64,000 bases of DNA from contig OY820579.1 of assembly GCA_963681965.1 (NCBI GenBank), positions 3,424,001 to 3,488,000 of the forward strand, given 5' to 3'. This document shows positions 12,979-48,900 of this stretch, piece after piece. The stretch is from a bacterium. Lineage in GTDB: Bacteria; Electryoneota; JAOADG01. How positions within the stretch are numbered: the stretch's first letter is position 1; every line of letters begins with the position of its first letter. The notes under the pieces were generated by a model, which was not told the origin of the DNA, did not search any database, and was given only the letters and a program-made list of their open reading frames with translations. The translations under genes were made by a program, and so were the position numbers.

Positions 12979-15900
12979 TTACTTACTGATCTTCATAACG
13001 CGATTCGGCAGAGCCGTCTGTCGCAATGCATCCGATGGCGCCATGTCATCGCTGCTATTGTCGGTGAATGCGCGCACCCGGTAAAATCGTTTCGGTGCCA
13101 GAATGACGGCATTAGTGTCGGTCCAACTGGTGTTGGCAGCACCGCTCAAACTGGTTCGCAGCAGCCAGGTACTCAAATAGGTATCGCACGAATAGACGCG
13201 ATAACCCGTCACAGTCATCAATCGTCCCGCCGTCGAACTATCGACCCGCGACCAAGTGAGCAGTGTATTCTGATTCGATACCGATACCGACAAGTTTCGC
13301 GGTACCGCCGGTGTATCGATTCCGGCAATGTGGAAAACAAGATTACTGGTATCGCCATCGGTCGCAAACCAATCTGAGAAGATCCGGAGTCGCGCATTGT
13401 TCGTCGTCGCGCCACTCACCGTCCAGACTTCGAGCGAATCGTTCGGTATCGATGCAAATAGCGTTTCCCACGTTCCGGAAGGATAGTTGCGATCCAGTTG
13501 AATCGTAACCGTTCCACCGAGAATCTTGCTGCTCCACCGAATGGTATCCTGATGTCCGAGGTAAAGAGTTTCACTGCCGTTCGGTCGAACAACCATCGGT
13601 TCCAAACCACCATTGGTCAATGCCCACTGCGACAAATGATTTAAGTTATTGAGGGTGAATTTGTACGAGTTTGTCGTACCGTTGTCTAGTGCAATTGTTC
13701 CACCCGATTGAAAGTGCCACGTCGTTCCGCCATCGTCGCTATAGACCGCATGAATGGCAGGCGACGAGGTGAGAGGATCGCCGATACCCGATGGTAAATT
13801 GCTCGTGGTAAACCGCAAGCCCAGCGAAGCATTGAGATACTGTTCTTGAGTCGGTGTAGTGATCCAACATCGGGTAATCGTTCGTTCCGGCGTCAATGCA
13901 TCGATGTTATACGGTGAATACGAGAGCTCGATACGATCCGGATTCGTGTACAATCCCGTTTGTGTCGGGAACGATAATTCCACTGGAGGAAGACTATTCG
14001 ATGCCAGATCGTAGGGTATCACCGGCGACCAAGCAATATGCGAATCGACGAGGAAGCTCGGATTGGACGACATCAGCGAGATCGACGACCACGGGTAATA
14101 CGACACACTGAACGGGAAGTCCGAGGTATCGCTGGTAGTCGTTTCAGTGACACCGCGAATCCGAATCTTCGCACTGATGGTCGGATTCCCGGTCGGCATC
14201 CAAACTAGCGTTCCACCGTTCGTCTGGTTAGCAGCCAGATTCTCCCAACTTCCGGTAATTGTTCGCCGCAAATCGATGGCGACATTTCCAGTCAAATTGA
14301 TGTTCGACCATTTGATTGTATCGGGCAAACCTAGATAGAATATTTCGCCATCATTCGGTCGAGTCACAGACACCGATGAATTCACGATCTTGAATGGCGC
14401 CGCCGACCAGTCTTCCAGCCCGTAGTAAGTATCGACAATATGGATATAGGCACTATCGGTCAGTGTTCCGGTTGGTGTCCAGACATAGTAACCACGCCGT
14501 GAGGGAATCGTATCGACTGCCGAGATGATTTCCTCGATACCGTTGATTCCGTTACGCAACAGGAAGAGCGAGACATTCCCGGTATAGGTCGCAACCCAGC
14601 GAATCGTGTCGGCACGATTCCGGATAAACGCTTCGCCGCCATTCGGTCTGGTCAAGGTGATCTGCCGGTCCTGAATGGAAAACGCCGCGTCGGACGTATC
14701 CGCTGCAGTCGCATACGATGCTGGAATGATTGCGATTCGCGCATTCGTCGTCGAGGTTCCCGACGGTGTCCAGAGATAGTAACCGCGACTTACCGGTACC
14801 GCAGTTGCCCCCGGAACCGTCAACCACGGCGGGTTTGGATAACTTCGGGTGTACTTGATCTGCACATTGCCGGTCACATCGCGCGAGGTCCATTTGATCG
14901 TATCTGCGACATTCAGCGTGAGTATTTCACCACTGTTCGGATAGCCGATCTTCACAGTGCGTTTGTAGATTTCGAAATTCGCGTCGGAAGTATCGCCGAC
15001 CGTTGGTGTGGTATACGACCGGATTCGAATTCGCGCATTCACCGTCTCCGTTCCGGCAATCGTCCACGCTTCCTTACCATCATTTGCCGTGTTGGAGAAG
15101 AGGGTTTCCCAAGTCGTCGAGGGATAATTGCGGTTGAGTTGAATCGACACATTCCCGGATAGCGTCGGCGCACTCCAGCGAATGGTATCGACTGCGCCAA
15201 CCCGGAACGCCTCCCCACCATTGGGATAGGTCACCGACACCACCGGCATTGCCCCGGAGGATCGAATAACGGTATTGGCATTGGACGTATCGCCATCGCT
15301 GGTATACAGTGTCGAAACGATCCGGAACCGTGCCGCCGATGTGATAGCACCGGACACCACCCAATTCTCGAGTGAATCGTTGGCAGTCGAAGTGATAATC
15401 GATTCCCAATTGCTCGATGGATAATTCCGATTCACTTGAATGGCGACATTCCCGCCGCGAATCGAATTTGTCCAGCGGAATGTAATCGTATTACCGATCA
15501 CGATCGTATCGTTGCCATTGGGATAGGTGAGTCGCGGCTGCAAACCGTCGTTCGTCAATGCCCACATCGACATGTGACTGATACCGGCTACTGAAAATTG
15601 GAAGGTAGTACCACCACTAGTACCCGATGCGAGATTGTCGACGGTACACGCACCACCGGGTTCGTAGATCCACGTCAAACCGTCATCATCGGAATATACT
15701 GCCATCAGTCCGGGATCGGCATTCACCGGATCAGCGATTCCGAAAGGTAAATCAGCAGTACTAAATCGCAGTGTCAAATCGACGGATTCAAATTGCTTCG
15801 ACGAAGGATCGATTGTCCAATACCGGTTAATCCGCTTCGCCAAATCGTCGGTATCGGACCGGCGATAGAATACGCGCACCGTATCGGGATTCGGGTGACC

Positions 15901-18900
15901 TGCCGATTGCGCCGGGAAGTGAATATCGACTGGCGGACGATTCCCCGTCGATGCATCGTAGGGAATCGGAGGCGACCACTCATTCAATAAGGCAGTACCG
16001 GTGTTTGGATTCTTAGCAAGGAACGCCAACAGCCAACTGTAATTTTCGATATTGAAGGTGTAGTCGGAAGTATCCCAAATCGCAGCATTGCTGACTGATC
16101 GAATCCGAATCTTCGAATTCTGATTGGCAACGCCGGTCGGCGACCATAATACTGATCCGGTATTGGGCGTACTGGCGATGATGTTTTCCCACTGCGCCGT
16201 ATAACCGCGCCGTAAATCGACGGCAAGATGACAAGTGTCGCTCAGGTTGTAGCTGTTCCAACGGATCGTATCCTGCAATCCGAAATAGAAATGCTCACCA
16301 TCGTTCGGTCGCGAGATCGTAATGGTGGAACTGACGATGCGGAATGGCACGTCGCTCCAGTCGTCAATGCCCAGATCGGTGTCGACGATGTAGATGTACG
16401 CATTGTCCGATAATGGTGCGGTAGGCGTCCAATGACAGTGGCCATCGGTCGATGAAACTCCCGATGCAATTAATTCTAGTTCGACTGGATCGATTCCATT
16501 ACGACTTACATAAACATCGTAGCGTGTCGGATAGGTTGTACTCCAACAAATGGAATCCGGTCGCCCGACGATTAATTGTTCGCCCCCTGCCGGACGAGTG
16601 ATGACTGCTTGACGATTGACGATCGCGAAAGTTTCAGTCGTGTCGCCATACTGAGGATAACCATTCGGTATCACTGCAATTCGTGCGGAATTGGTTGGCG
16701 CGCCCGACGTCATCCATAGATACTGGTAGCTTGACGATGAAACATTGTTGGCAAGCGTTATCCAAATCGGTCCGGGATAGGCGCGATTCAATTTGATCGT
16801 GTAATTGGTAGCACCGTGCCAATCGCCATAGTTCCAATTGATTGTGTCTTGTTGACCGACAAAGAAAGTGTCGATACCGGACGGATGGAAGATTGTTTCC
16901 AATAAACTGTAACTAATCAAACTGGTATATTGCGGTTGTGAAATCGATGAAATGCGAAACACTGCGGATGCTGCCGGAGCGGTGACTGTCCAAGTTTCAT
17001 TCCCGTCGTTCGGAGTAGTATCGAATAACATTTCCCATGTACCGGTGGGATAATTGCGATTCAAATCGATCCGTACATTTCCGGGTAAGTTGCTGGGAAG
17101 CCACTGTAATGTCAAAGGTAAGTGAATACGCGGTCCGTAACTGTAACTATTGTAGTTTATCACGGATAGCGGATAGTAGATCTTCACATTATCGGAAGTA
17201 CTAGTCCGGAACGGCTCTTCGACACTTTCCAAACGGAAATTGGTCTGACCACTATATCTTCCGAACGTATTGGTAAATCCGAATAGGGAAGAATCGACAG
17301 AATAGATGTAACTACCCGTATTGGGCACATTATCGAAGATGGTGACCCAGCTACCCGGCGGTATTGAATTCCACTTCTTAATCCGAACATGTCCACCGAC
17401 GTTCGATTGCCAGCGAATCGTGTCGGTCATTCCGACATAGATCGTATCGACAGTTGAAGTATTCAACAATGAGAATATCGGTATAACGAGCGAGAAATCG
17501 CTGTCGCTCATATCGGTCAGCGTTGGATACCGCTCCGATACGACTCGAATTCTTCCCTGCGTCGCCGCAGTGAGAAGCGAATCACACCAATCGAAAGATC
17601 CCGATGCGGGAAGTCCATTGGCGATCAGGCTCCATACGCGTGTTGTTGCAGCCTCGCGACTGTATTCCAGCCGCACGGTTCCCGATAAATTTGTCGTCCA
17701 GCTAACGTTGGTGTGACGACCGTAAATAATCGATTCACCTCCATTTGGATACACGATACTGAGTGTCGGTTCGAAGATTGAAAAATCAGTCGAATTCGAA
17801 TCACTCATCGTGGGATTCTGTACTGAAGTGATCTTAATGCGGGCATGAGTAGTCGCCGGTGCTGTGACCGGATTCCAGAGATATGAATGTGACGTTTCGG
17901 GAATATTTGCAGAGAGCGATGTCCAAGTACCAATCCCGCTAGCGCGGTTGAGTTCCACATTCACCGATTGAACGCCGGAAACGTTATACTTGATTGTATC
18001 GACTTGTCCGATCGGGTAGGCATCTCCTCCGGCGGGCTTGATCAATTTCACCGCTAATGGTTCATCGACACCAGCAGCGGGCGTTACCGGATTTCGCCGG
18101 GTACTATCGAAATCGGTCATTGCCCAACTGATCGGCGATCCGCGGAATAGTGCCGGGCTACCCGATAACAGATGGTAATCAAGATTGGTTCCCATCGCAG
18201 ATAAGCATGGGTCGCCCCAATATGAATTGGGATCGACTGTACTGGACTTCCATGTTGACCAGGGAACCGCCGATTCCGGTGTAAACACATCAACTGCGGC
18301 ACCGCCTCCAAGTTCGATCGGACAATACAAAACATTGTTGTCGATCGTTCCCGATTGCCATGCACGGTAATAAATTACATGTCGATTTGTCGCCGAATGA
18401 CTACCATAACTAGCATTCACAAAAATATTGTTGCGTACAATTCCCGTTTGAATTCGGGCACAAGCAGATCCGTATGTCGAATCGCAGTCCAGCACGACGG
18501 TATTGTGAACGATGTCGGAGTTACCCTCACTGTAGATACCGAAGACCCGGAAACCAGTTGCTTGCGAGTTATTGCGAAGATCGTAAATCACATTGTTCGC
18601 AATCTGAATCACATTATTGGTATAACCGACATCGATTCCAAACACCATTCCCGAACCCGAAAGGATCGATAGATTGTGAATCCGATTGCGCACGAACTGG
18701 CTCGCTGCCACGTCGGATTGCGCTTGGATACCGTAGGTGTAATCGCTGGTCGTTAACGCAACATTCTGAATCGTGCAGTCGTGCACATTAATCCCAAATT
18801 GTCGATTCAGAAATATTCCGTAGCCGACACTGTTGGTCGCACCGACCGTGAAGCGATTGGGATCATCCGGATTGGCGGTCGTAGAACCGATTTCATTGCA

Positions 18901-21885: not shown

Positions 21886-21925
21886 TGGATCCTCCATTCT
21901 ATTTCGTAAATGTCAGTTGACTATA

Positions 21926-22016: not shown

Positions 22017-24947
22017 TTACTTTGTTTCCAACGCATTAAGTTCTTGAAGTGTTTTTTCTTCAGCATTACGATCATTCACTTCGCGATGGATTGACAGCGC
22101 CATGTGATAGAACTCGCGCGCTTTATCGGTTTCGGAATTGCGGCGGAACAAATTGGCAAGATTTGCCAATGCTAATCCTTCACTTCTCCGTTCTCCGATT
22201 TCGTTGTAAATCTGACACGCATTGCGACACGTTTCGATCGCAGTTGCGATATTTCCCATTCGAACTTGAAGTTTCACAAGATTGCTCGATAATCTTCCCT
22301 CGGCACTGCGATCGTGCAGTAATTTCGAACGTTCGCGACAACTGTCCAATAATTGTTCGCACTGTTCCCATTCGCCTTTACCGAAATAAATACCAGCAAG
22401 ATTCTGCTCGAATACATTGACCGAGTGAGTCTCTTTCAACGCACTCAACTGCTCGATCGCAGCTTTTAACAACTCTTCCGCTTCGGCAATCTCGCCGCGG
22501 TGATTGGCAATCAGACCGAGATTTCCGATTGCCAGCGCAGCAGTTTTCGCATCCGATTTTTCCAAAGCCAATTCGCTGGATCGCTGGTAATGTATAGCTG
22601 CACCATCGATATCGCCGATTAAGTAAAGATAATTCCCGATCCGGTTTTCGACTGTCGCCGTGTGACCGGAAAAATGTTCCATTTCTACAAAGAAGGATAA
22701 CCGATCAAGAATGAGCTTCTGTTCGGACCGTTTCCCAAGAATTGCATAAACACCTTCAAGTTGACTAAGCAAATCATAATACGATTTAGCCAATTGATGA
22801 TGAACCATATCCTCGTACCGCGGAAACCAATCCAAAATATTTTCTGCCATTTTTGCGGCTTCGCGATTGTGCCAAGCCCGGCGAAGTTGCTTCACAGCAC
22901 GCGACCCGTATTCCAACGATTTAGTTAAATCCCCGGCATGATACCAATGCTCGGCTAGAACGCCCGAGAAATATTCGGCATCGTTACCCAGAATCTCTTC
23001 AAGCGATTCCGCAGTCAAACGATGAATTAACGAGCGATTTTCTTTCAAAAGCGTCTGATACGCTACCGTTCGCGATATCGTCAATTTGAATTTGTATGAT
23101 GTCTCTTTCAGCGAAGTGATGTTGCGAAGAAAATCGCGAAATACTAATCCATTCAGTAGTGGTTCGGCATTTTCCACATGCGATAATTTTGTTTTTACCG
23201 ATTGAAATAGCTTTAAGGAGAAATCGAGTCCCATCACCGAGCATTGTTGCAGTACCTGTTTTTCTTCGTGTGGAAGCCGATCGACCCTTGCTCGCACCAA
23301 ACTGGTAATACTATTTGGCAAATCGCCGTGACCACTGTCGGTTAATCGCCAGTGTTCGTCTTTGAAGTGCAAGGTGCCGCTCTCCAGCCAATCCAACACG
23401 AATTCTTCGGTGTAAAATGGATTTCCCTGCGAAAATTCGAAGATCCGTTCGATAATCGTCTTATTCAATTTTACCGGTTCAGCGGAAGAACTATAAGCCA
23501 TCAGCATCGATGAAACATGATGCTGCGCTTGTTCCAACGTTAATGGTACAATCACTCGCTCGTGATAATCGACATAGGCTTCGCGAAGATCCAAAGTCAG
23601 ACGTTGTCCGTCGTCGCGATCGGGTCGAAAGGTGGCGAGAAAAAACATCGGTCGAAACGAATCGCAATTGGTGATCATGAATTCGAGAATTTCCTGCGAT
23701 CCCGAATCGAGCCAATGCAAATCGTCAAGGAAAAACACGATGCGAGGTAAATGATCGGCTAAGATCTGAAAGAGATTGCGGATTGCCAATTTCGATTGTT
23801 GATACAAAACTTGATCGGATAATTCCGATAATTCTTCGGATTCAAATCCCAAAATGTGACAGAGGAATGGAAAACAGGCTTGATATTCGGGATTTTCGCT
23901 TAGACCATACGCCGAACCGAATTCGTAGTATAACTGTTCAAACCTCGCCAGTTCCGATTTATCGTCGGTGATGCGAAAGAAATTGCGAAACAAATTTGCC
24001 CAAAGGTAAAACGGCGGTTGCGCGACCGACATCGTGTGACCGCGCAACAACGTGATCTCGTGATGAGATCGTATATGCTTCAAAAATTCGAAAACCAAGC
24101 GCGATTTACCGCACCCCGGATCGCCACGTAGACCGATCATCGTGTGTTTAACGCCACCGCGCGGATTGATTTCGGTAGGCGAATCCAGTGCTTTCCAACG
24201 CTCCTTGATAAATTCCAATTCGGAGTCGCGTCCGATAATCGGTACCGATTGCATCCACGATGTTCTTTCCCAGCGTGCTTTATGGATATCGCCAAACCCG
24301 ATTAGCCGATACGTATGAATTGGTTTACTCACCCCTTTGACTTCAACACCGCCTAAATCTTCCCAGATAAAATGATCGTGCGTCAATTTGACGACCGAAC
24401 TGGTGACTTGCACGGTGTTCACTGCCGCGGTGGATTCCATCCGCGATGCGACATTGACTGCGGTTCCCATGGCAGTGTGATGTCCGGTCGGATCGGGTCC
24501 AAATGTAACCCAACCGAAGTTGATACCGCACCGTGCACCGATCCGGATTCCCAATCCCGACACGGCGTCATCAAGTGTCTTCACCGCCTCGACCAATTTC
24601 ATTCCACAACTAACGGCGAGGTAACTGTCGTTTTCCGATGCTTGTTTCGCACCGAATAGCGCCATTACCAAATCGCCTTCGTATTTGTCGACATAACCGC
24701 CATGATGTTCGACAATTTTATGGAGCACTGTCATAATTCCGTGTGGACCATTGATGATCGAATTGATCGCCTCGGGATCGTTCAATTTTTCCGATAATGC
24801 GGTGAATCCTTTCAAGTCGAGAAATAGAATTGCGATTTCTCGGCGTTCACCCGGAAGCAGCTTGGGCGTTGGTGGTCCGGATTTATCGCCCGTCGAACCC
24901 AATTTTTTCAATTGTGCGGTCAACGAAGCAAGTAGTTGATCACTCAT
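22017..24947 (-). CDS. Class III adenylate/guanylate cyclase - AAA+/STAND ATPase - TPR protein (976 aa)
   Basis: Cyclase motifs FLDLKGFT, DKYEGD, GINFG, TAMGTAVNVASRME; Walker A GDPGCGKS; Walker B FFLDDLHWLD; GNPFY; C-terminal TPRs. Start at ATG 24947 (GGGAGG RBS, ATGA overlap with the upstream stop). Confidence 0.9.
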   Translation of the reverse strand: MSDQLLASLTAQLKKLGSTGDKSGPPTPKLLPGERREIAILFLDLKGFTALSEKLNDPEAINSIINGPHGIMTVLHKIVEHHGGYVDKYEGDLVMALFGAKQASENDSYLAVSCGMKLVEAVKTLDDAVSGLGIRIGARCGINFGWVTFGPDPTGHHTAMGTAVNVASRMESTAAVNTVQVTSSVVKLTHDHFIWEDLGGVEVKGVSKPIHTYRLIGFGDIHKARWERTSWMQSVPIIGRDSELEFIKERWKALDSPTEINPRGGVKHTMIGLRGDPGCGKSRLVFEFLKHIRSHHEITLLRGHTMSVAQPPFYLWANLFRNFFRITDDKSELARFEQLYYEFGSAYGLSENPEYQACFPFLCHILGFESEELSELSDQVLYQQSKLAIRNLFQILADHLPRIVFFLDDLHWLDSGSQEILEFMITNCDSFRPMFFLATFRPDRDDGQRLTLDLREAYVDYHERVIVPLTLEQAQHHVSSMLMAYSSSAEPVKLNKTIIERIFEFSQGNPFYTEEFVLDWLESGTLHFKDEHWRLTDSGHGDLPNSITSLVRARVDRLPHEEKQVLQQCSVMGLDFSLKLFQSVKTKLSHVENAEPLLNGLVFRDFLRNITSLKETSYKFKLTISRTVAYQTLLKENRSLIHRLTAESLEEILGNDAEYFSGVLAEHWYHAGDLTKSLEYGSRAVKQLRRAWHNREAAKMAENILDWFPRYEDMVHHQLAKSYYDLLSQLEGVYAILGKRSEQKLILDRLSFFVEMEHFSGHTATVENRIGNYLYLIGDIDGAAIHYQRSSELALEKSDAKTAALAIGNLGLIANHRGEIAEAEELLKAAIEQLSALKETHSVNVFEQNLAGIYFGKGEWEQCEQLLDSCRERSKLLHDRSAEGRLSSNLVKLQVRMGNIATAIETCRNACQIYNEIGERRSEGLALANLANLFRRNSETDKAREFYHMALSIHREVNDRNAEEKTLQELNALETK

Positions 24948-27900
24948 TTTCGACCTCCCACATTCCGGGATTTCGTATCCGTTGATAGCGACTCGAAGCG
25001 CACTTTCACCGCATCCACCGGCGCAAGGACAGGTGCACTCGACGAACTGCCGAGATAAGCGCGGACCTGATAGAACTTCGGTGAAATACCGACGGCATTC
25101 GAATCGGTCCAAGTCGTGGTCGTAGCACCGGCAAGCGTTTTCAACAACGTCATAGTAGTGGGATAACTCGTGCCGGTGTAGACACGGTATCCATCCGGTG
25201 TCAAAGCGTGACCTAGCGTAGAATATTCGACCGGCGACCAGCTCAGAATGGCATGCGCGTCGGAAGTCGTTATACTCAGATTCTGCGGCGCTTGCGGAGT
25301 TTCGGTGTAAGCACTGACGATGGTGAAATTCACATTGCTGGTGTCGGCATCGGTAGCAAGCAATGTATTCGGATTACCCCAATACGACGTGATGCGAATG
25401 CGCGCATTCGTCGAAGGTGACCCGCTCACCGTCCAGAGTTCCATCCCGTCATTCGGTGTTTCGGTCGCAATCGTTTCCCAAGATCCTGATGGATAATTCC
25501 GGTTCAATTCGATCTTCACCGTACCACCGTTGATTGCCGCATACCAGCGAATCGTATCGACTGTACCAATCGTACACTGACGACCACTATCCGGCATTGT
25601 AATCACTGGATCGAGACCGCTATTGGTCAACGACCACTTGCCCAGACGCGCCACGCTCGTCACGAAATACTGATAGGTGATCATGCCACTCGTGTTGTGT
25701 GCAGCACCATCGACTACGCACATTCCACCCGGTTGATAGATCCAAGTGAGACCATCGTCGTCGGAATGCACCGCCATCACAGTCGGATTTGCGGTGGTCG
25801 GATCGCTGATTCCACCCGGTAAATCGGCAGTCGTAAAGCGCAACGTCAATTGCGCATTCTGGAAATTCGCAGCAGTCGCCGTCAGATCCCATTCACGATT
25901 GACTGTGCTGACACTGATGTCGTCGGATGCACTCCGGATGTAATGGACACCCAGCGAATCGGGATTATAATTACTGCTCGACTGATCTGGAAAATAGACA
26001 TCGGCTGGCGGTCGATCGGCAGTTGAAGCATCGTACGGAATCACCGGATTCCAGGTGTGCTGACGGTTCGCATTGGGATTACGGGTACGGTATGTATTCG
26101 CCCAATTGAAATAGAAAATTGTAAACGAGGTATCGGAGACGTCGGAAATCGAGGTATCGGCAACCGAGCGAATCCGGATCCAAGCAGCACTCGACGCCGA
26201 TCCGTCGGGACGCCATTCAAACATTCCGGTATTCGGCAGATTCGTACGCAAGGTATCCCAACTGCCGTTTCCGCGTTTGATATCGATTCCGACATTCCCC
26301 GTAACATTTACTGACGACCAGCGCAATGTGTCCGTGAGCCCCAATACAAACGGTTCGTAGCCATTCGGTCGAGTGACGGTGATCAGCGAATTGACGATGC
26401 GGAAACTGCTATTCGAGTAATCTTCGACACCATTGTTACCATCGACGATGTAAATAAATGCGTCATTGGAAATGGGACCGGTCGGTGTCCAGACAAAGTA
26501 TCCATCGCGCGTCCGAACGGTATCCATATCGGTAATCGATTCCGCTTCTCCCAAGATTCCATTGCGGTATAGATAGATCGAGATATATCCATTGTAGGTG
26601 GTTGTCCAGCGAATGGTATCGGGTCGATCGATCAAGAATCGTTCGCTGCCATTCGGGCGCGTGAGTGTTAACTGCGGTGTCGGCACAACCGTGAAATTTG
26701 CATCGGATGTATCGATTAAATCGGTGCGCCCAACCGGAACAACCCGGATGCGATACGTCGTAGTTGCGGGAGCGGTCGGCGTCCATGCCAGATAACCACG
26801 CGAAGCAGGGATATTGCTGCCGCCGGTAGCAGTGACCCACGGTGTCGGGAACGTGCGTGAGAATTGAATGTTAACATTCCCGGTAAAACCGTGGTACAGC
26901 CACCGAATAGTATCGGCGACATTCAACGTGAGTACATCGCCGCCATTCGGGTAAATCAGCGGATGATAGATTTCGAAATTGGCAGCAGATGTGGCGAGTA
27001 CGTTTCCGGTCACTTTCGATACGAGTCGAATGCGCGCCGTGGTGGTTGCCGGGTTCGGTGCACGCCAGAGATAGCGTCCGGTATTGGCGAGTGTGGTAAT
27101 CGAATCCCAACTTCCCGTCGGATAGTTTCGATTCAATTCGATTCGAATCGAATCGGTGACGGTTCCCGCTACCCACTTGACCGAATCCTGTACGCCGATC
27201 TGGAGAAATTCACCGCCATTCGGACGCGTGAACAACAGCCCCTCGTAGATCGTGAAGTTGGTATCGGAGAGATCCGATATCGTCGGATACACAAGGCTGG
27301 TGATGCGAATCCGCGCGATCGTCGACGCGGGTGTAGAAACAGTCCAGGCAAATTGTCCAGCAGTAGCAGTTTGTGTGGTCAGCGAATCCCACGTTCCCGA
27401 TGGATAACTGCGATTGATTTGAATAAGGACATTCCCGCCGAGATCTTGCGATGTCCAGCGGATCGTGTCGGCACTCCCCACCTGTTTGGCAAGCACGCTG
27501 TTCGGTGCAGTGACGGTGATTGCCGGATTGATGATGGTGAAATTCGCATCGCTGGTATCGGCAAGTGACGGTGTCGCGATCGAACTGATTCGCATGCGAG
27601 CGGTAGTCGATGATGTACCCACAACAGTCCAATGATAGCTGCCGGTGTTATCGGCACTGGCGGCGAGGGTATCCCATGTTCCGGTCGGATAGTTGCGATT
27701 CAGTTGGATGCAGACATTGCCGGTGAAACCAATCCCGCTCCAGCGGATCGTGTCGACGGTTCCGTAGCGAAGAGTCTCCGAGCCGTTGGGGTGAGAAAGG
27801 GTGAGCACCATTGCTGAGCGAACTAGGCGGAAACCTATGGTTTGAGAAGGTATATCACTATTATTTCGGAATGCAGATCTAGAATAAACAGGATATGTTC

Positions 27901-33760: not shown

Positions 33761-33866
33761 GGAGCGCTCCCGATGGCTGAGAATTTTTTTTATCATTGCG
33801 AAAAAGTGATTGCAGAATTTGAAACGATACTATCGCAACAACAGATAAGGATGAAAAAAAATGAAA

Positions 33867-34165: not shown

Positions 34166-37100
34166 TTACTTTTTCAGAAAACGCATTCCCCGAACCGGAC
34201 GCGCCATCGTTGCCTTCACATCGATCGGATCCAATACCGGACTGGACGACGACGATGCATCGTTGAGATATGCCTGCACCCGATAGTAGCGGTTTGTCGA
34301 CGGGAGTGCGTTGATGGCGGTATACGTCGTCGAAGTCGCTCCAATCACTGTTGCCAACAGCGACCACGCGGTATCCGGATACGCCGTCGACCGCGCCGCA
34401 TAAATCTTGTAGCCCGTCACAGTCACTGGACGATTCAGCGTACTGGAATCGACCCGCGACCAAGTGAGTACTATATTGTTGCCCGATTGGGTTCCAACCA
34501 GATTGCGCGGTGCTTTCGGGGTCTGCCCAATGGTGAAGCTGTTATCCGACCAATCCTCGAGCAGCCCATTGTAATCGACGATGAAAATCCTCGCATCGGT
34601 AGTACCCGGTCCGGTCGGCGTCCAAACTACGTATCCCGGTGCCGCCGGGATGTTGTCGAAGAGAATTTCCAGATTTTCATAATCGATACCAGAGCGACTC
34701 ACGGCTACGACGAGCGATGAAAATCCCACCTGATTCCAGCGGATTGTATCCGGAATTCCCGGCGTAAGTACTTCGCCGCCATTCGGTCGCAACAGCGTCA
34801 AAACCGGATTGACGGTGTACTCGTCGGCACCGATTTCCGGCAAAGTGCTGTTACGCGACTCGCCGTCGATATCGGTTGTCACATACGATACCGGCATTCC
34901 CGTCTGATACACCGGCGCGTACAACATCGGTTGGATATGCAGATTGCTAGCCGGATTGATGAATGATGGATCACCACTGCGCGAATTCGCATCGGGGTAT
35001 CCGGGTGACATCTGCCAATCGGCGAGCAGCGCGTAGTTTGAAGCAGTCGATACGTAATATTCGCCGACAAAACCGTTGCCAGTGAACGGTACGTAGAAAC
35101 AGTTGCGATCCGAATAAAGCGAAGTTGTACCGAAATTGGCGATTGCGTAGTGATAAGCGCCAGTCGATTGATCTGCGGTCATATTCGCGAGAATGTTGTT
35201 CCGCAACGTGTCAATTCCGCCATATAGGAACAGCGCCGTAGATGTAGCAAGTAAGCCGTAGTCGGTACCCTGATCGATCGAAATCGTGTTGTTGTCGAAA
35301 TTGCAATTTCCACCGAAACTCGAGATACCACGGACATAGAAATTACTCGAAGCCACGACACCGGTCGCAGTCGACCGCAAGCCCCAAATCATGTTGTTGT
35401 GGCATTTCAACGAAGAACCATTCAGTGAATAGAACAGCATTCCGGTTGTGTAGTAGAAATCGGCATTACCGATTGTATTCTCGATGTTATAGATCCGATT
35501 GTTGTAAATCCGAAAGGTATTCGCGGTTGTCGTCGAGTCTTCGATTTCGATGCCGAGTGAATTGTTGGCAAAAGCCGGTAACGCTTTGATGTTGGTGATG
35601 TCGATATCGTGGATCGATAAATTCGTCATATTGACCGCATAGATCCCCGTACCGGTGATTGTATCGTTTGCCAAGGCTCCGATCGTGAACCGATTCGAGT
35701 TGCTCACTCCAGTCGTCGTGCTGCCAATTTCAACTCCGACATCCGAAAATGCACCACTATAAGCAAACAACAATACCCCTTGATACACTTTCGAGATTTT
35801 CAGATTGAGGAATTTATTGTAGCTGTTTGTTCCCGCCAGTGACGTTGGTAGGGCATTCGCGTTGAAGTATTGTTGGATACCGCGCGAAACAAAGTCTTTC
35901 CGCAAGGTGATCGAACAATTCTTGATAGTATTGTACTGAGCGCCTTGCGTCGAGGAATAATTCGTGAGGTAGTATCCGCGCCGGATGTAGTTACTGGCAC
36001 CGCTGCTGGTATCGACGACATTGATTCCATCGAACGTAACAAAGGAACTACCGGTCAATGAGATTGCACTCTGTCCGACACCATTCACCGGCGGCATCAA
36101 CGTAACCGTACCACTCTGCTTTTGGAAGATGACTTGATTCGTCGTACTGACACCGGGAATCGGATTTAGCGCGATGAATTCGTTATAGGTTCCGGAACGT
36201 ACGTTAAATGTCACTCCTCCGGTACCGACACCCGAAGCCGACAATGCCAAAATAGCATCGGCGAATGTTGCATAATTGGGACTGGTTCCACCGATCGTCT
36301 TCGTTCCAGTCAGCGGAGTTCCACCGATAATGAAATTCGCATTGCTGGTATCGCCTACCGTGGGAAGCGTCACACTAATCAACCGGATGCGAATATTCGA
36401 TCCTTGTTGACCACTCGCTGGTGTCCAGATCAGTCGATTCGCCGATAAATTCACTGGCGATCCGGTAATGATTGTCCAAGTTCCGCTGGGATAATTTGTA
36501 TTGATCTGTACATTGACGGTACCGGTTACATTCTGATAAGTCCAGCAAATCGAATCGGCAACTCCGACGCGCAACAATTCGTATCCATTCGGTCTGGTCA
36601 TCGTAATCAGCGGTGGATAATACGTAAACTCATCCGCACCTATATCGGGTGTAGTAGCGCTGCGCGCTTCGCCATCGATATCGGTAGCAACCGCGGTAAT
36701 CGGGGCACCGGTATTGCTTGCAGGCGAATTGGCATAGGATGGTATATGCAGATTGCTAATACTACTCGTGAAGAGCGGATCGCCAGTTACCGAACTCAAA
36801 TCACCACCGGTTGCAGACTGCCAATCGGTAATCGATGTACAGAGCGAACTAGTCGCGTTGGAATAACCCACCGCACCATTGGTAATGTTCGGAAGATAGA
36901 AGCAATTGTTATCGGAAAAGAGCGTCGTGGTACCGAAATCGCAGATTGAAAGATGATAAGAATCGGTCTGGTTGGCAGTGTAATTTGCCATGATATTATT
37001 GATAAGGGTATCGGCGCCGGAATTGATTTGAATGCAAGTAGAAGTAGCCAGTAATCCGCTATCGGTACCTTGATCCAATGAGATCGAATTGTGAACGATA

Positions 37101-40976: not shown

Positions 40977-43900
40977 TTACTTTTTGGATTCACTCTGTGG
41001 TTTGGTTCGACTGATGGCAGTTGATGAGATTGACACTGGTTGCACTGACGACGACGACGCGCTGCGATACGCCGTTACCCGGTAGTAATAGTGCCCGGTT
41101 ACATTATTGTCGATATAAGTATTCGTTCCTACTGGCACAGTTCCGATCAGTGAACCCACATCGGGTGGTGCGAAGTAACCGGTGCTGTTGCGCCAGATCC
41201 GGTACGTATCGAATGTGCCGGTTGCGGCGTCCCAACTTAGTGTTGCATTCGGAAGCGCAAATGAAATTGTCAAATTACCCGGTACCGTCGGTGGCACCGA
41301 CGACGCTTGAGTAACTGAGATGTCATCAATGAAAATTGCCGCACCATTCCGATTAATAGAAACGAATCCAATTCGACCACAATAATCGAGCAGCATTTGC
41401 GGGATCGAAATTACTGCCTCCCGCCAAGTGCCGGCTGCTGCCGGAACCATTGAACTGCCGCCGGATCCCGATGCCAGTGCCTCTTCCCCGGTTCCGGTTG
41501 CCCATTTCCGGAATAAGACGGTAGAGGTTCCGAATTGCGATTGATAAACTACTTCCACCGAGTCGTTGAACGATCCATAAGGTGAGTATGACCATTTAAA
41601 CCGAAGTTCGGCATTCATTCCTGCGGATAAATCGATGAATGGCGTCCAGAGTACATCGCGATCGTCGTATACCGAATTGTGATAACAATCCATCATCGCC
41701 ACACCGTCATTGGAATTAAATCCGGTGTACTGCGACCACATATAACCACCATCCGGATTCTCGTATTCCCACATCAACGGTGGAAAATACTCACTGCTGA
41801 ATCCAGTAGAGCAGGGTCGATCGACGAATTGCTTCGTAATCAAGTACAATCGATCCGATACGGTTGGAGTGATTTCGCCTGCACCGTTCCGAGCTACCGT
41901 TACAAATATATATTCGGTATTCGGATGCAAGCCAGTGACGTAATAGCGACCCCATTGAGCTAAATTCTTCCACTCGGGATTCTCGCCTAGGGTACAATTG
42001 TTCTGAAGGTATAAATTGTTGTTCTGTTCGAGAATGGCATACTGCGTCTCATCCGGATTGTAAGCAATACTGGAATTTTGCGGCGAGACAATTGCCGTCG
42101 AACAACTGACAAAGCTGTACGTAGGAGCATCGGGTAAAGCTGGATAAGTCCAGAATGAAATGAATTCACAGGTATCCGACGGCAGCGCATCGATCATCGC
42201 ATAAATCTTGAACCAATAATGCATATTTGGTGTAAGCCATTCTGCATTATAGATCGTATCGTTTGCCGGAAGGATTTGCAAAAAGTTCCAGTTGAGACTA
42301 TCGGTCGATTGGAAGACTCTGAACCCAGTCTCATTGTAAGCTTGATCGTGCCAGGCAATTTGCGCCGATTGATAATCGTGAGATACGACTTGTCCCATCA
42401 CTGGTGCGTTTGGACCGAATACCCGATTTACCGAAACCGGTGATATGTAAATATTCGATCCACCGAAACTCTGACCAATGAACCCGATGCGGACATCATT
42501 CCGCCCCATCATATAGGCTGGTAGATTTGCCATCACTTCCCGCCAAGTGGAGCGTGTCGCTGGCGCATCCGGTGCACCACCGGAACCAGCAACCAATGCC
42601 GCGCCACCGACTCCGGTCCCATATCCCTGCCACAACCATTCCAGCGTTGCCCCGTTGTCGATCGTTGCAAAAACATAGAGGATGTCGTCGTGATCGGCAT
42701 CGCGGAGCGCATACGACCATTGGAAATAAATATTTGCCAGCGCGACGTCGCGCAAATCTACGTATGGACCCAGCAACATTCCCATCTGATTGTTCGTTAT
42801 GGGGTTGTTTGCGGGGAAGCAAGCAGCGTGATAATTCTCGGTTTCACTTGCATAGGCTTCCCATAAAACCGTGTAACTAGTTGTCTGAGGTAATTCCCAA
42901 TCCAATGGTGGGAACACTTCCTGCTCAAAAGATTGATCGAATGGGATCGAGTAGCCGGGAACGGTCGAGCACTCAACAGTTGTCGAAAGATCGGTCTGGT
43001 TCCAAGCCGGACTGACTGCACGAACTCCGACACTATATGTTACTCCGGGCAATAGTCCAGATATCTTCAGATTTTCCAGCTCATGCATGGGTCGTTGCGA
43101 ATCTGCCAATCCCAGTGTGCCATTTAATTGAACTTGCAATGTCACGCCAGTAGATTGATTGGTGAAAAATATCCGAAACATAGTCTCCGGACCATTGATA
43201 TTGGAAAAATCATTGCGAACCGTGAGTTTACATTGATTCGTTCCAATCCAATCCACAACCGGTGCTTGCGGAACCATGCAATTTGGCGCGCCGAAGACAT
43301 CTGAAAATTCACTCGATGCCACCGGACCATTCATGGAATAGACGCGGTACGTATAGGAATAGCCCGGCATCGCGGTAAAATCGGTGTATTGGTGGATATT
43401 CGTGGCAGTCGTACCGATCTGCGTGAAGTTCGTACCATCGGTGGAACGCATAATTTTGAAACCGGTTTCGTTATTCGAGTTGTCACTCCAATTCAGTGCA
43501 ACGTAATTCGTTGCGAGACCGGTCACTTGAAGATTCGAAGGACCGTAAGGTGGTGCGTACGCAACCAATTCGAAATTGTCGACAAAGATAATACTTCGCG
43601 TCCTGGCGTAGTTTGTTCCGAAAAGCCCTACCCGTAACGAATTTTGATTGGCAGCATCCGCAGGAAGTGTGATTGTCCAGGTGCCCCACCCGGTCGAAGC
43701 GGGATTCATGGCATCGCCACCGGAACCAAACAAAAGTTGCTCATTGCCGACTCCGTTGACTCGCCTCATACCGACATAAGTTTCGGTATAAAGATTATTG
43801 GTCGAATACGCTACAAACAACGAATCTTCTTGATCCCCCAAATCTTCGTTAGACATGCAGAAATCAAACCTGACAGTGACGGTAGTGGCACCTAACGTGC

Positions 43901-45866
43901 TGACATTCGGCGACCATAGGAAATAACGATCGGGTCCCGCCATATTTGTGGGATATCCCACTACGCCATTGTTGGAATTTGGATTGTTGTAGAAGCTAAA
44001 CCAACAAAATCCACCCATATATGGCGAGGCTAGCCAGCTCGGCGGTAACTCACCTTGATTGGCAACAAATTCTTCACGGTACGGTAGTGCCCGTTGCGCT
44101 AGTATCTTCATATCGACCCGCATCGTATCGCCGATCGTGGTTGGATTATTTGAATCGAGAATTCTAATTCGGACGTGATCGCTCGATGGTCCGGTAACTA
44201 CCCACGAGCGAAAATTCATGTTGGCACCGTCTCCGGAAATCACTTCCCACGCACCCGTCGGGTAATTCCGATTCAATTCCACGCGTGCAGTCGAGACATT
44301 GATTGCAGAATTCCAATAAATTCCCAAATAATCGCCAATGGCTAAATTCATTGAAGTAAAATTGGGTGAGGTTAGCAGCATCGACCGCATGCCTGAAACC
44401 AATGCTTTGGCATCGACAATACGACCCATCCGTCCGACATAATTGGGATTCCAACCCGAAGGGTCTCGTGCCGTACTGATCATCATTGAAGCCAGATCGT
44501 CGTCGGTCATTTCCGGTGCTTTCGACAGCGCCAACGCTGCAACCGCCGCCGCGTTTGGACATGCCATCGAAGTACCAGATTTCAGACCATATCCGAGATT
44601 GGTTGCGGTATGGATTACTGTCGAAAGGATTTCGACACCCGGCGCACAAAGATCGACCGATTCGCGGAAGTTCGAAAAGTGTGCCAATTCATTGCCGCGA
44701 TCCAATGCCGCAACCGACATATAATAGGAATATTCGGAAGGATAATTCGCATCCGACGACGAATCGTTGCCCGCCGCGGCAAAGGGGAGACAATTGCACA
44801 TGCGAGCGTATTGTCCAGCCGACCGATAAACCAAATCGCTCCAAGTGCCACCCAAGCTTAAACTAACCACTCGTGCACCACGCGCAACCGCATATTGGAC
44901 ACCGGCAGAAACATCAACGCTATTAAAACTACCAGTCAATCCTCCATCATGATAGACTGCGAAACCCGCGCGTACCGCCAGTGTTTTTACATTGTACGAT
45001 GCCGAAGGTACACCGATTCCATTATTCGTACGACTCGCGATCGTTCCACAAACGTGGGTACCGTGACCTTCTACATCCATCGGTTTGCCATCGCGCGGTC
45101 CATAATCTTCACCGGGAACATTATGGTATCCAATCATCCAGTAGGTATCGTGGTTGACGGCATCCCAACCAACCACATCGTCGACATATCCATTGCCATC
45201 ATCGTCGATACCATTCATATCGCTGTCGTCGAAGCGACCATTGTGATTCAAATCTTCCGCTGCATTCACGAGGAAATTGTCGACTAAATCGGGATGGTAA
45301 ATGTCGACACCGGTATCGATCGTCACTGCCAGAATCTGTGAACCGGTTTGACCGCGGGCATACTCCCACGCTTCGCGGCAGTGCATCGAATCGAGTCCCC
45401 ACATTGGTCGAGTAAATAGAGACCAATCATTCGGAGTATGGGTGGTATACCCATATGCAGTGGGGTTCGCTTCTTCTACCACCCCGGAATATTTCACCAA
45501 GCGATCGCAAACATCCGTTACAAGCTCAGTACCGAATGGATACGGCTTTTCCAACCCGCCATACATTGTATAGATGCGATCCAAGCCGACTTCCCAGAAA
45601 GCATGATTATTCAGCGATGCAGGATCCCAAGTGAAGACCGGAACGAGTTTAGGAATATTGCATCGTTTCATCAATGTATCGAGCGTCGGATTTCCGGTTG
45701 GATACTGTACGGTACCGTCGTTCAATTTATGCAAAGTGCCATTGAATTTAGTCGTGAGCTTCAGATTCAGTTGGTTGATGGCGTAATCGACTCCCGGTTG
45801 CGGGGTTGCCCATGTGAACACCGGAATCAATAGGATCGCTAGTAAGGCTAGAATAACAAATCGCAT
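40977..45866 (-). CDS. Giant secreted S8 serine peptidase with Ig-like, MAM/cleaved-adhesin-like and FN3 domains
   Basis: Signal peptide; TIDTG / HGTHVCG / GTSMACP triad; 'NGIDDDGNGYVDDVVGWD' Ca-binding-type insert; 'W.DNSNNETGF.I.RS.DG' FN3; 'F....FPP..W...ID.I' adhesin-like repeats; GGAGA RBS. Confidence 0.92.
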   Translation of the reverse strand: MRFVILALLAILLIPVFTWATPQPGVDYAINQLNLKLTTKFNGTLHKLNDGTVQYPTGNPTLDTLMKRCNIPKLVPVFTWDPASLNNHAFWEVGLDRIYTMYGGLEKPYPFGTELVTDVCDRLVKYSGVVEEANPTAYGYTTHTPNDWSLFTRPMWGLDSMHCREAWEYARGQTGSQILAVTIDTGVDIYHPDLVDNFLVNAAEDLNHNGRFDDSDMNGIDDDGNGYVDDVVGWDAVNHDTYWMIGYHNVPGEDYGPRDGKPMDVEGHGTHVCGTIASRTNNGIGVPSASYNVKTLAVRAGFAVYHDGGLTGSFNSVDVSAGVQYAVARGARVVSLSLGGTWSDLVYRSAGQYARMCNCLPFAAAGNDSSSDANYPSEYSYYMSVAALDRGNELAHFSNFRESVDLCAPGVEILSTVIHTATNLGYGLKSGTSMACPNAAAVAALALSKAPEMTDDDLASMMISTARDPSGWNPNYVGRMGRIVDAKALVSGMRSMLLTSPNFTSMNLAIGDYLGIYWNSAINVSTARVELNRNYPTGAWEVISGDGANMNFRSWVVTGPSSDHVRIRILDSNNPTTIGDTMRVDMKILAQRALPYREEFVANQGELPPSWLASPYMGGFCWFSFYNNPNSNNGVVGYPTNMAGPDRYFLWSPNVSTLGATTVTVRFDFCMSNEDLGDQEDSLFVAYSTNNLYTETYVGMRRVNGVGNEQLLFGSGGDAMNPASTGWGTWTITLPADAANQNSLRVGLFGTNYARTRSIIFVDNFELVAYAPPYGPSNLQVTGLATNYVALNWSDNSNNETGFKIMRSTDGTNFTQIGTTATNIHQYTDFTAMPGYSYTYRVYSMNGPVASSEFSDVFGAPNCMVPQAPVVDWIGTNQCKLTVRNDFSNINGPETMFRIFFTNQSTGVTLQVQLNGTLGLADSQRPMHELENLKISGLLPGVTYSVGVRAVSPAWNQTDLSTTVECSTVPGYSIPFDQSFEQEVFPPLDWELPQTTSYTVLWEAYASETENYHAACFPANNPITNNQMGMLLGPYVDLRDVALANIYFQWSYALRDADHDDILYVFATIDNGATLEWLWQGYGTGVGGAALVAGSGGAPDAPATRSTWREVMANLPAYMMGRNDVRIGFIGQSFGGSNIYISPVSVNRVFGPNAPVMGQVVSHDYQSAQIAWHDQAYNETGFRVFQSTDSLNWNFLQILPANDTIYNAEWLTPNMHYWFKIYAMIDALPSDTCEFISFWTYPALPDAPTYSFVSCSTAIVSPQNSSIAYNPDETQYAILEQNNNLYLQNNCTLGENPEWKNLAQWGRYYVTGLHPNTEYIFVTVARNGAGEITPTVSDRLYLITKQFVDRPCSTGFSSEYFPPLMWEYENPDGGYMWSQYTGFNSNDGVAMMDCYHNSVYDDRDVLWTPFIDLSAGMNAELRFKWSYSPYGSFNDSVEVVYQSQFGTSTVLFRKWATGTGEEALASGSGGSSMVPAAAGTWREAVISIPQMLLDYCGRIGFVSINRNGAAIFIDDISVTQASSVPPTVPGNLTISFALPNATLSWDAATGTFDTYRIWRNSTGYFAPPDVGSLIGTVPVGTNTYIDNNVTGHYYYRVTAYRSASSSSVQPVSISSTAISRTKPQSESKK

Positions 45867-45942: not shown

Positions 45943-45967
45943 AGTTATTAATACATACTATGAATTA

Positions 45968-48900
45968 CTATTTGCTCTCATCAAGTTTATCAGGTAATCG
46001 CATGACCGGAATTGTCGGTGAAATCGGTTCTACACTCGAGGACGATGCCCCTTGGTGACAAGTCACTCGATAGAATCCCTTGACCGTTATACCGGGATCG
46101 GTAAAAGTTGTTGTTCCTGCCGGAACGGTTCCGACCAGTGTTCCAACCGATGGAGGTGTGAAATATCCGGATGTGTAGCGCCATACTTGATAATTATTGA
46201 ATGAACCAGTCGAGGCATCCCAAGTCAACGTCGCATTCGGATAGGCATACGAGATTCGGAGATTCGTCGGTGCTGAAGGTGCAGCCAATGAACTGGAAAT
46301 CTCGACATTATCGATAAACAAATTGGAACCATACCCATTTTGCGATCCAAAAAAGAATCGTAGATACTTAGAATTCAAAGTACCGTTACCAAACGGAACA
46401 ACTATATGCCGCCACGACCCGGTTGGTGCCGGTGTCATCCGGGTACCGCCGGTTCCACCCGCCAAGGAGTCATCCCCTGATAGGTCCGATCGTAATGTAA
46501 TTGGAACAAAGACATGGGCGGTGATAGAATCGCCGTAGCTGATGACCAAGTTTAATGCGTCGATCAACCCCGGTTCAGCAACATAACTCAGATCGAACTG
46601 AATGTAAACTGTCGAAACCCCTACGATATTGAAGTACGGTGAATACAGCTCATCTGTCCGACCGATATCCATGTAATTGTAGAAATTGACATACGCACAT
46701 CCATTGTTCGAATTCGCACCGGTATATCTATCCCATCCAATCGCTGCGTCGTCGTTGCTAATTGTCCATTGTTGTGGCGGGAAAGTCGCGCTACTGAAAT
46801 CCTGTAGATACGGTAAGGGCAACCGGGGTAGCATCGTTACAACGGTGTCGAGACCGATACATTCCCAGGATTCGTGATTAATGGCAACCATTCGGATTGT
46901 GTTACTGGATTCGTATGAAATTCCGGAGATGAAATAGTTACTCCACCAGTCCAGAGTCGCTTTTCTACACTGGTTAAAATCGCTTGATAAAATGCCGGAT
47001 TCGGTTACATAATAGTTATTAAAGAGGACATAGTAACGCGTGTTGGAGGGATTGGGTTGAAGCGCGTTGTTGTGTCCGGTAAGGGTTAAATAATGATACA
47101 TGACATTACCGATGCCGGGTACATCCGGTGCCGAACATCCGGTATAGTAGAAGCAATTGGCATATTCGGTGGAATATCCTCCTCGACCAAAGGAATAGAT
47201 TCGATAGGAATAATAGGTGTTGGGAGTCAAGCCATGATCGGTGAAAACCGTCTGATTGGCGGCAACAGCACCCGCAAATTCATAGGGCCCTTCATACGCC
47301 GTTGCCCGGTAGATCGCAAAGGATTCCTCATCGACAACATTGTCGTCCCAGGTCACGACTAGTGTATCGTTATCAGGTCCGCCAGGAGGCAGGACAAATC
47401 GGGCATTGGTCGGAGCCAGCGGTGCAGCGGACGTCATCAATATTAACTGACCCGAGGTGTCGGCTGGCTGAGCGGGATCGAGCGAGTAAGAAATCACCCG
47501 TAACGAATAAGTGTGAGATGGACTTAACCCTCCCAAATGAAATCGCGTATTCGATCGAATCGTAACCAAGTATGGTGTCGACGACCAGGACATATCGGGT
47601 TGCAGGAACAAACGGGTATCGGTATTGAAGAGTGCCGTTAAAGTTGAGGGGTTGTTCGGTTGAAATGGATTATTCCTTGGATAAACCCAGGCTTCCGTGC
47701 ACGTCACCGAGTCGACTACGGGCGCGGGTGAGTTTGACAATCCGGTCAATACGTTATAAACAATCGCGGCATCAGCCGAGACAGTTTCCCCATTGGCGCC
47801 GAAGAAACCGACATCGTAGTAATAATTTCCAGCTCCCATGACGAAGGTTCGAACATCGGATGCAACGAGTGGGATCGTCCCCAGAACATTGAAGTCAGCA
47901 TCTACTCCCGACAACCGATAGCCGACGACATTGTTGGTTGCCGAGGGATCGCTGTCGCGCCATTGAATACCGAATCCAGCAGCAATTGGATACGCATTGA
48001 CCCATCCCGGTGGATTCGGGGTTTGATAGAGTGCAACATCGTCGATAAAGAAATCCGATAGGGCGCTATGCTCCGACAACATTAACCCAACGCGAACAGC
48101 AGCTTGATTGCGCGCTGCAATCGGTAATGCGACTTTCCAGCGTCCCCAGTCTGCGGCAGCCCACATATCGTAAGATCCACCCGTACCGGCATAGAGCGCT
48201 TCCCGAGCCATGCCATTGCCCCATTTCACCGCAAACGGAACCCATGACGCACCATCGTCAAGTGAATACACGAGACTGATTGAATCGTTGTTGACATCGG
48301 TATTGCGTCTAGTAGCGCAATAACGTAGATCGATACAGGCATCGGATACTCCCAACGTCGAAATGGGCGGTAACCAGAAAAAGTCGTTCAACCCATTGTT
48401 CGGTCGGGAACTGATTGGCACTTCCACGATGTAATTATCGGTAATTCCTATCCGTGAAAATGTCTGCGATTGATCCACTGAAGACACGATACGGAAACCG
48501 TGAGCTGAAAGCGAATGATCGAAATTATCATAAAATGGCAGCGGAAGTGTCGTCTGCGGAAGAGCGACAAATGATTGCGATTCCGATACCACCGAGCGAT
48601 CTTCGTTGGACAATCGAAGCGACATCATACCCGGATAGTCCGGTACATAAATCGATCGTGGAGATGTCAATCCATCGAACATAATAAGAATATCATTCCA
48701 CCGGGCACCACCATTGGTAGTAAATTCCAATCTAGCTGGTGCAGCACCGGTAGCTGTCCACGACACACTTTGAGTCGTCCGGACCTGCCAAAACTCACCT
48801 CCGATCGGGCTGGTGAATTGGAAGGGCGGTACTTTCACCTGAATGTTATCGACATACAAAATCGAACCAATCGCATCTGGCGTAACAGATTTAAAGCCGA

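Follow-up and report, generated by a model that had tools for sequence, protein, structure and literature searches.

A recurrent FN3-like C-terminal domain on giant exported proteins of an Electryoneota genome: a candidate second sorting or anchoring tag

The stretch of DNA considered here (the window: 64,000 nucleotides (nt), positions 3,424,001 to 3,488,000 of contig OY820579.1, from a bacterium of the phylum Electryoneota) is part of a single-contig genome of 4.24 Mb. It contains five large open reading frames (ORFs) on the minus strand between positions 12979 and 52048, encoding predicted proteins of 2972, 2950, 2111, 1629 and 2026 amino acids (aa). All five giants end in the same domain, which resembles a fibronectin type III (FN3) module and is termed FN3CT below, followed by a tail of 29-37 aa. 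An earlier note on this DNA had described the shared domain and a serine-rich tail ending in lysine, and had proposed that they form a sorting or docking signal in place of the C-terminal domain (CTD) of type IX secretion system (T9SS) cargo. Translation and alignment of the last 174 codons of each giant ORF reproduced exactly the C-termini that had been quoted. The five-way alignment has invariant columns at P..P.NL, L.W, Y, Y.V and S..P, and the FN3 signature reads P..P.NL / L.W / Y.(V/I)(Y/W) / (F/Y)Y(R/Q)V.(A/C).

The giants, all of whose features lie on the minus strand, carry quite different passengers. The 2972-aa protein (ORF 12979-21897) and the 2026-aa protein (ORF 45968-52048) give only weak immunoglobulin (Ig), BNR and reelin-type matches. 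In the former, strands A-F of FN3CT occupy 13069..13332 (profile match E 6e-50) and end in FYRVRA, and the 29-aa tail FTDNSSDD...MKISK (12982..13068) has a weaker serine run than the tails of the other four giants; in the latter, the FN3CT profile match lies at 46058..46312 and the 29-aa tail HQGASSSSVEPIS...DESK at 45971..46057. The 2950-aa protein (ORF 24944-33796) contains DUF7948, SBBP, LVIVD and FGE-sulfatase domains ahead of its FN3CT profile match (25058..25324) and a 37-aa Ser-rich basic tail, YLGSSSSAPVLAPVD...GGRK (24947..25057). The 2111-aa protein (ORF 34166-40501) has an M6 peptidase domain, FN3CT at 34271..34534 and the 34-aa tail YLNDASSSSSPVLDPID...FLKK (34169..34270). Finally, the 1629-aa S8 subtilase (ORF 40977-45866) ends in FN3CT at 41070..41327, which in the tree described below falls within a subgroup marked by GYFxPP..GTLIGTV, and in the 30-aa tail YRSASSSSVQPVS...ESKK (40980..41069).

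None of the five giants gives a match to Por_Secre_tail (PF18962), the Pfam model of the type A CTD. Three smaller proteins of the window, all encoded on the plus strand, do match it: an 850-aa S8 subtilase (5744..8296, CTD at residues 771-847), a 727-aa LVIVD protein (10619..12802, CTD at residues 649-724) and a 363-aa P-domain protein (58036..59127). The contrast between giants and smaller proteins drawn in the earlier note thus agrees with the PF18962 search.

The C-terminal ending of the giants recurs in the genome far above chance. A profile of the five giant C-termini, run against all genome ORFs of at least 50 aa at a domain E<1e-3, matched 45 ORFs; a later profile round drifted to a generic FN3 model, and the first-round definition was kept. 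The match is internal in three of the 45 and C-terminal in the other 42, ending no more than 45 aa before the stop in 41 of these and followed by a 146-aa tail in one. A hydrophobic, signal-peptide-like N-terminus, called by a hydropathy scan and reading by eye rather than by a trained predictor, is present in 40 of the 42 terminal carriers. The two exceptions are stand-alone fragments of 84 and 86 aa at G000:C1:2676113-2676367 and 1252925-1253185, probably remnants of disrupted genes; the one at 2676113-2676367 adjoins a member of a 23-copy family that resembles insertion sequences (IS). Almost exclusively C-terminal matches on proteins with signal peptides are what the earlier note had expected of such a profile.

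The same holds for its expectation that the new ending and the type A CTD would be mutually exclusive. The CTD model TIGR04183 gave at least 150 matches across the genome, from which a CTD profile was built that finds the domain in 238 ORFs. Not one ORF carries both FN3CT and CTD (42 against 238); four CTD proteins have weak internal FN3 matches. The two endings are found on proteins of overlapping size. FN3CT proteins run from 345 to 4099 aa and, with a median of 1589 aa, tend to exceed CTD proteins, whose median is 722 aa (Mann-Whitney p=6e-5); of the 52 ORFs longer than 1500 aa, 24 have a CTD ending and 21 an FN3CT ending. The proposal that the ending serves very large cargo therefore stands as a difference in average length, but not as a rule, since FN3CT also occurs on proteins of only a few hundred residues and many of the largest proteins carry a CTD. 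FN3CT passengers are diverse, including S8, M6, LVIVD, FGE-sulfatase, BNR, ASH-type Ig and EYFFD-repeat proteins.

The relationship between the two endings shows in paralogues. When the FN3CT proteins were compared with the CTD proteins of the genome by BLAST, six FN3CT/CTD pairs were found in which homology ends where FN3CT begins in one member and the CTD in the other. In one such pair, residues 45-324 of a 399-aa LVIVD protein, whose FN3CT begins at residue 322, align to residues 82-363 of a 459-aa CTD protein; homology likewise stops at the tag junction in pairs of 391 and 385 aa and of 396 and 436 aa. Three FN3CT proteins align to a 2445-aa CTD protein up to residue 2360-2380. Because the passengers of paralogues match up to the tag junction, FN3CT and CTD are natural alternative endings on the same cargo. 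Outside the phylum, a Chitinophagaceae homologue of the small EYFFD-repeat FN3CT proteins ends in a complete FN3 domain followed by a type A CTD.

By fold, FN3CT belongs with FN3 domains. The top Foldseek matches are all FN3 domains (5n06, 1wf5, 4u3h; probability 1.00), and a search of a protein atlas with the domain returned FN3-type clusters only, with scores of 0.89-0.91. Family models recognise it poorly: NCBIfam gave no match for the giant C-termini at E<=10, and Pfam gave only sub-threshold, fn3-like matches of 20.8 bits for the 2111-aa giant and 19.9 bits for a 398-aa member that has no tail, against a cut-off of 25. FN3CT is thus neither a complete seven-strand fn3 above the Pfam gathering cut-off nor a match to any sorting domain described in these collections. 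The two Pfam matches cover profile positions 2-78 and 2-71 of 84, respectively. In homologue searches, the C-terminal region of the 1629-aa protein retrieved only itself, the FN3CT region of the 398-aa protein retrieved itself, one paralogue and one weak match, and a search for related loci with the whole 398-aa protein gave four loci, all through its N-terminal repeats.

Two lines of evidence suggest that FN3CT is a sequence subgroup of its own within FN3, truncated after strand F. One is a tree of 81 FN3-like domains of the genome, in which 45 terminal domains fall into a single 46-row group with a Shimodaira-Hasegawa-like approximate likelihood ratio test (SH-aLRT) support of 90, while 11 FN3 domains that precede a CTD and 17 internal ones form separate groups; the tree was made by a quick search on few columns, those filled in fewer than half of the rows having been dropped, and end-truncation itself could contribute to the grouping of the terminal copies. 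The terminal label needs two changes on this tree, against a mean of 26.7 when labels are shuffled, and none of 500 shuffles gave as low a number. The other line is the position of the C-terminus: 14 members stop 2-8 residues past YYRVxA, the end of strand F. In AlphaFold models of a tail-less member and of the end of the 2111-aa giant, strands A-F are predicted at a per-residue confidence (pLDDT) of 83-97 and no G strand appears; strand F corresponds to residues 83-90 of the 122-aa end piece modelled for the giant, and its tail, at pLDDT 51-64, is not predicted to form a G strand either.

The tails behind the domain fare less well as a common signal. Among the 42 terminal members, 14 have no tail, about 16 end in a basic, Ser-rich stretch of low complexity, and about 12 carry another, better conserved motif, roughly G.G.SDSFDRIIRxIPxGTPxxEVxxxL (six of these were caught by a regular expression and the remainder were assigned by eye). 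Tail length ranges from 11 to 146 aa. The SSSS-x-P...K tail of the earlier note, absent or replaced in most members and modelled with low confidence, is therefore not a shared property of the class. Nor does the serine run look like the cleavage site that had been suggested; because its alignment to Pfam fn3 falls in the FG loop, with the match reaching profile position 78 of 84, it looks, on sequence grounds, like the degenerate end of the FN3 domain. Some constraint on composition is evident. The final residue is K or R in 22 of the 28 tailed members, compared with 25% of 2008 other ORFs and 95% of CTD proteins, and runs of three or more serines are rare upstream of CTDs (5 of 238). We read the tail as an optional, fast-evolving extension under compositional constraint that is not the signal itself, with a modulatory role possible. 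An exosortase or sortase signal of the PEP-CTERM or LPXTG type was considered and rejected, the tails having no hydrophobic stretch and no NCBIfam match.

Terminal FN3CT is not confined to this genome. A 41-sequence FN3CT profile found matches in 29 of 31 related genomes, with high counts in the window's own family (19-60) and, among the other families of the phylum, in f6 (28-51), f7 (23) and one f4 genome (31); counts were low in f3 and f5 (0-8). The match was C-terminal at 40 of 40 loci in three genomes of the window's own family and at 29 of 30 loci in three other families (f4, f6 and f7). None of the relative loci examined has a CTD, and the same three types of ending recur. The Ser-rich tails recur in the three same-family genomes, where they are unalignable and highly variable in length. 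At eight loci in other families (genomes G011 and G016) the second tail type is YIGEIGILDxxxSxGxxISREELxxxL, a conserved and probably helical mini-motif behind the truncated FN3. A stricter profile of tail-less members, run over all 79 species genomes of the phylum, matched in 4 of 4 genomes of f1, 4 of 6 of f9, 12 of 24 of f6 and 1 of 2 of f4, and in 0 of 16 of f2, 0 of 16 of f3 and 0 of 9 of f5.

The picture in Bacteroidota is different. Of 101 evenly sampled genomes, 18 gave between one and four matches. Examination covered 28 best-hit loci, 25 of them from this sample and three from the genomes of two further loci (L079 and L080), and all have a complete FN3 domain that is internal, or stands before a type A CTD (at least 10), or is terminal but complete (one); a truncated terminal FN3 was found at none of the 28. 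Its absence from these loci could be the reason that T9SS work on model organisms has not come across the module.

If FN3CT is read by a partner in the cell envelope, that partner might be sought among T9SS components or among the neighbours of FN3CT genes. The genome encodes PorV and three paralogues, and PorV is present in all 31 genomes tested. One PorV-like paralogue (NF033710, E 4.7e-6) lies at 3488539-3489507 of the contig, about 540 nt beyond the window, and is followed by what appear to be extracytoplasmic function (ECF) sigma and anti-sigma-like genes, judged by size and N-terminal sequence only; the two other paralogues adjoin CTD cargo genes. No barrel gene was seen adjacent to FN3CT genes. 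The type B CTD and PorP-family models (TIGR04131 and TIGR03519) had no match in the genome, a weak negative, as neither matched in any control genome. Clustering of neighbouring genes gave IS-like families, ORFs reading through repetitive extragenic palindromic (REP) repeats, a beta-helix-like family and a family of cyclase-AAA-TPR proteins. The read-throughs beside FN3CT genes at G000:C1:3808779-3810395 and 2281969-2282556 consist of a repeated FWTQEVVRTSSDLQQYDRT peptide and are not genes.

The beta-helix-like family has seven secreted members of 329-351 aa (G000:C1:223171-224181 and six paralogues) with a weak right-handed beta-helix signal and the ending GLP(V/I)TIRARGRN, and no Pfam or NCBIfam family was found for them. 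Six of the seven genes stand immediately upstream of an EYFFD-repeat FN3CT gene, which some of them overlap; the seventh lies one gene further up, next to a paralogue, and the family is tied only to the EYFFD-repeat subgroup.

Within the window, an adenylate/guanylate cyclase-AAA-TPR (STAND-like) gene on the minus strand (22017..25112) lies between the 2972-aa and 2950-aa giants and is not part of the tag. Its longest ORF begins at a TTG and shares 169 nt with the end of the giant ORF 24944-33796, and its true start is probably further downstream. It is one of 10 paralogues, three of which directly adjoin giant FN3CT genes, while others lie in the coordinate neighbourhood of giant CTD genes (coordinates read by eye); the family may regulate giant surface-protein genes. 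On the far side of the giant cluster, and adjoining it, an ORF on the plus strand (53186-55264) encodes an unusual fusion of a MurG-like glycosyltransferase (families 28 N and C) to HEAT repeats, followed by a family 4 glycosyltransferase gene (55261-56382).

Taken as a whole, these observations support the existence of a second class of C-terminal domain in this genome, and they make FN3CT a good candidate, as yet unproven, for a second tag that sorts or anchors proteins. It sits strictly at the C-terminus of proteins with signal-peptide-like N-termini, it excludes and replaces the CTD, it forms a distinct sequence subgroup, and it is conserved in relatives. From this we infer a function in sorting, anchoring or docking, perhaps by strand complementation and perhaps linked to T9SS, and we lean, with little more than even confidence, towards FN3CT being a modular C-terminal address tag for exported proteins that works in parallel to the type A CTD. 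Cargo would cross the inner membrane through its Sec signal peptide, after which its destination would be decided by the FN3CT end, a sandwich of six strands in which the G strand is degenerate or lacking. The most likely route would be binding of the open F-strand edge to a cell-envelope partner by strand complementation, the partner being either a type IX component or a receptor at the surface that keeps the cargo attached to the cell. The basic, Ser-rich tail would then be a degenerate FG loop and G region with a low-complexity end, and not a signal. Such edge binding is favoured because the truncation is the most unusual conserved property of FN3CT, and because the last strands of the type A CTD are, in the portion of PMC4804311 drawn on here, the recognition element and prone to swapping. 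A more specific form of this mechanism, in which FN3CT is one half of a docking pair, an open FN3 to which a protein of the outer membrane or associated with T9SS supplies the missing strand in trans, with Ser-rich or helical tails serving as caps or modulators in cis, strikes us as rather unlikely in its full detail. A link between FN3CT and T9SS is favoured by the genome's heavy reliance on that system and by cargo families common to both endings, and T9SS moves very large proteins; against the link stand the lack of homology to the CTD, the absence of FN3CT from several T9SS-bearing families and the failure to find a co-varying component.

Several results weigh against the address-tag reading. 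At the level of the profile, FN3CT is hard to tell from FN3 in general: 111,120 library proteins match the 41-member profile at E<=0.001, and the top 150 of these are proteins with 10-54 FN3 repeats, whose summed score masks terminal position. An alignment of tail-less members searched against longer proteins again retrieved generic multi-FN3 proteins (44 of the 120 listed were inspected). No homology of FN3CT to the CTD was detectable by hhalign, which aligned it to the genome's CTD alignment at a probability of 3% over 12 columns around YYRVtA / GxYFvR. The absence of a G strand is a matter of models and sequence, and tailed members may have a divergent one. Whole T9SS-bearing families (f2, f3 and f5) have no FN3CT at the threshold used, so it is dispensable for T9SS. 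Genomes rich in FN3CT cannot be told from poor ones by their count of PorV paralogues or by the Omp85-peptidase fusion of the porU-porV operon, which all 31 genomes tested have, with or without FN3CT, and neither genome neighbour clustering nor the neighbours in relatives revealed a conserved membrane protein beside FN3CT genes.

Many of these points would sit comfortably with FN3CT being an ordinary terminal FN3 domain, a spacer, stabiliser or substrate binder with no part in sorting, on proteins that use another route or stay periplasmic; this is a lesser possibility, though one to be reckoned with. The profile is that of generic FN3, fold searches give FN3 domains only, no partner was found, several T9SS-bearing families do without the domain, and two secretins indicate that other envelope systems exist. 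Yet a spacer should be internal as often as terminal, and FN3CT is terminal in 42 of 45 cases here and in 69 of 70 in relatives. Moreover, in sequence the terminal copies cluster together and away from the internal FN3 domains of the proteins that carry them, in paralogues they stand in for the CTD from the same junction onwards, and the truncation just past strand F is seen again in unrelated proteins and beyond the window's own family.

Closer to what the earlier note had in mind, the tail could be the signal, its serine run being cleaved or glycosylated and its basic end recognised like that of the CTD. The frequency of terminal K or R, the specificity of the serine runs to this class and the recurrence of Ser-rich, basic-ended tails in same-family genomes all speak for this, but a signal that is missing from 14 of 42 members, is replaced by DSFDRIIRxIPxGTPxxEVxxxL in about 12, varies in length between 11 and 146 aa and is unalignable among close relatives is improbable, the more so as the tail is modelled with low confidence and its serine run aligns to the fn3 FG loop. 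Least probable of all, to the point where we give it very little weight, is that FN3CT proteins are decayed T9SS cargo in which the CTD was lost and the preceding FN3 left as a stump. An FN3-linker-CTD ending is indeed common in the sampled Bacteroidota (at least 10 loci) and occurs in 11 proteins of this genome, and the 84- and 86-aa fragments, one beside an IS-like paralogue, have the look of decay. That said, the 11 FN3 domains that precede a CTD group apart from the 45 terminal domains, FN3CT is found on 40 long ORFs that are intact and reach 4099 aa, terminal FN3CT is conserved in at least four families, and the motif of the second tail class is conserved between families.

Should FN3CT prove to be a tag for sorting or anchoring, some 15% of the tagged secretome in this lineage (42 proteins against 238 with a CTD) would take a route hidden from current predictors of T9SS cargo. 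That share would include 21 of the 52 ORFs longer than 1500 aa, many of them peptidases, and the annotation of secretomes and surface proteins would change in several uncultured lineages of the Fibrobacteres-Chlorobi-Bacteroidetes (FCB) group. Docking by strand complementation, if true, would add a second cargo-sorting route for roughly half of the giant surface proteins. The module is small (about 85 aa) and is exchanged between proteins in nature.

Among known systems, the closest parallel is the type A CTD of T9SS (TIGR04183 / PF18962), exemplified by the CTD of RgpB. Like FN3CT it is a small beta-sandwich that forms the very C-terminus of multidomain proteins, many of them very large, which carry a signal peptide and are exported by Sec, and in this genome the two share passenger families and the same slot in paralogues, as well as the K or R end in tailed members. 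They differ in fold, that of the CTD being of Ig type and that of FN3CT of FN3 type, and FN3CT matches no CTD profile; the idea that FN3CT is a divergent type A CTD was rejected on the hhalign probability of 3%. As far as the sections of PMC4804311 used here go, the type A CTD has seven strands, the last two of which carry the signal, and these last strands, the recognition element, can swap between molecules; the FN3CT models have six. Cargo with the type A CTD depends on PorV, PorU and the SprA translocon, and is cleaved and attached at the surface. AlphaFold-multimer models of CTD-PorV complexes have been published, as excerpts of PMC11969387 indicate. Precedent for a second class of CTD with its own outer-membrane partner comes from the type B CTD and its PorP/SprF-like shuttles (TIGR04131, TIGR03519), described in parts of PMC9143113 and PMC12618676. 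Unlike the systems described there, this genome gave no match to the type B CTD or the PorP family, in searches that had no positive control.

Canonical FN3 domains (PF00041) share with FN3CT the A-F strand pattern and the motifs P.xP.NL, L.W, Y.VY and YYRVxA. FN3CT departs from them in scoring below the Pfam cut-off, in a match that stops at position 71-78 of 84, in being strictly C-terminal and in forming a separate subgroup. A more distant analogy is donor-strand complementation. In chaperone-usher and type V pili, an Ig-like fold without its last strand leaves an open edge, much as FN3CT may do. No donor strand, chaperone or polymerisation was identified here, unlike in the pili, and the analogy serves as a mechanistic lead only; the comparison has been drawn for the CTD too, in a passage of PMC4804311. 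In literature on type IX secretion, type A and B CTDs, Fn3 sorting signals and strand swapping, a truncated terminal FN3 acting as a sorting signal was not found, and the main text of PMC12618676, to the extent consulted, mentions neither Fn3 nor a "type C". C-terminal beta-sandwich tags on secreted proteins are known, and the truncated terminal FN3 version is new relative to the literature searched. If FN3CT is such a tag, setting its different architecture beside that of the type A CTD would be a natural way to learn how C-terminal beta-sandwich signals are recognised.

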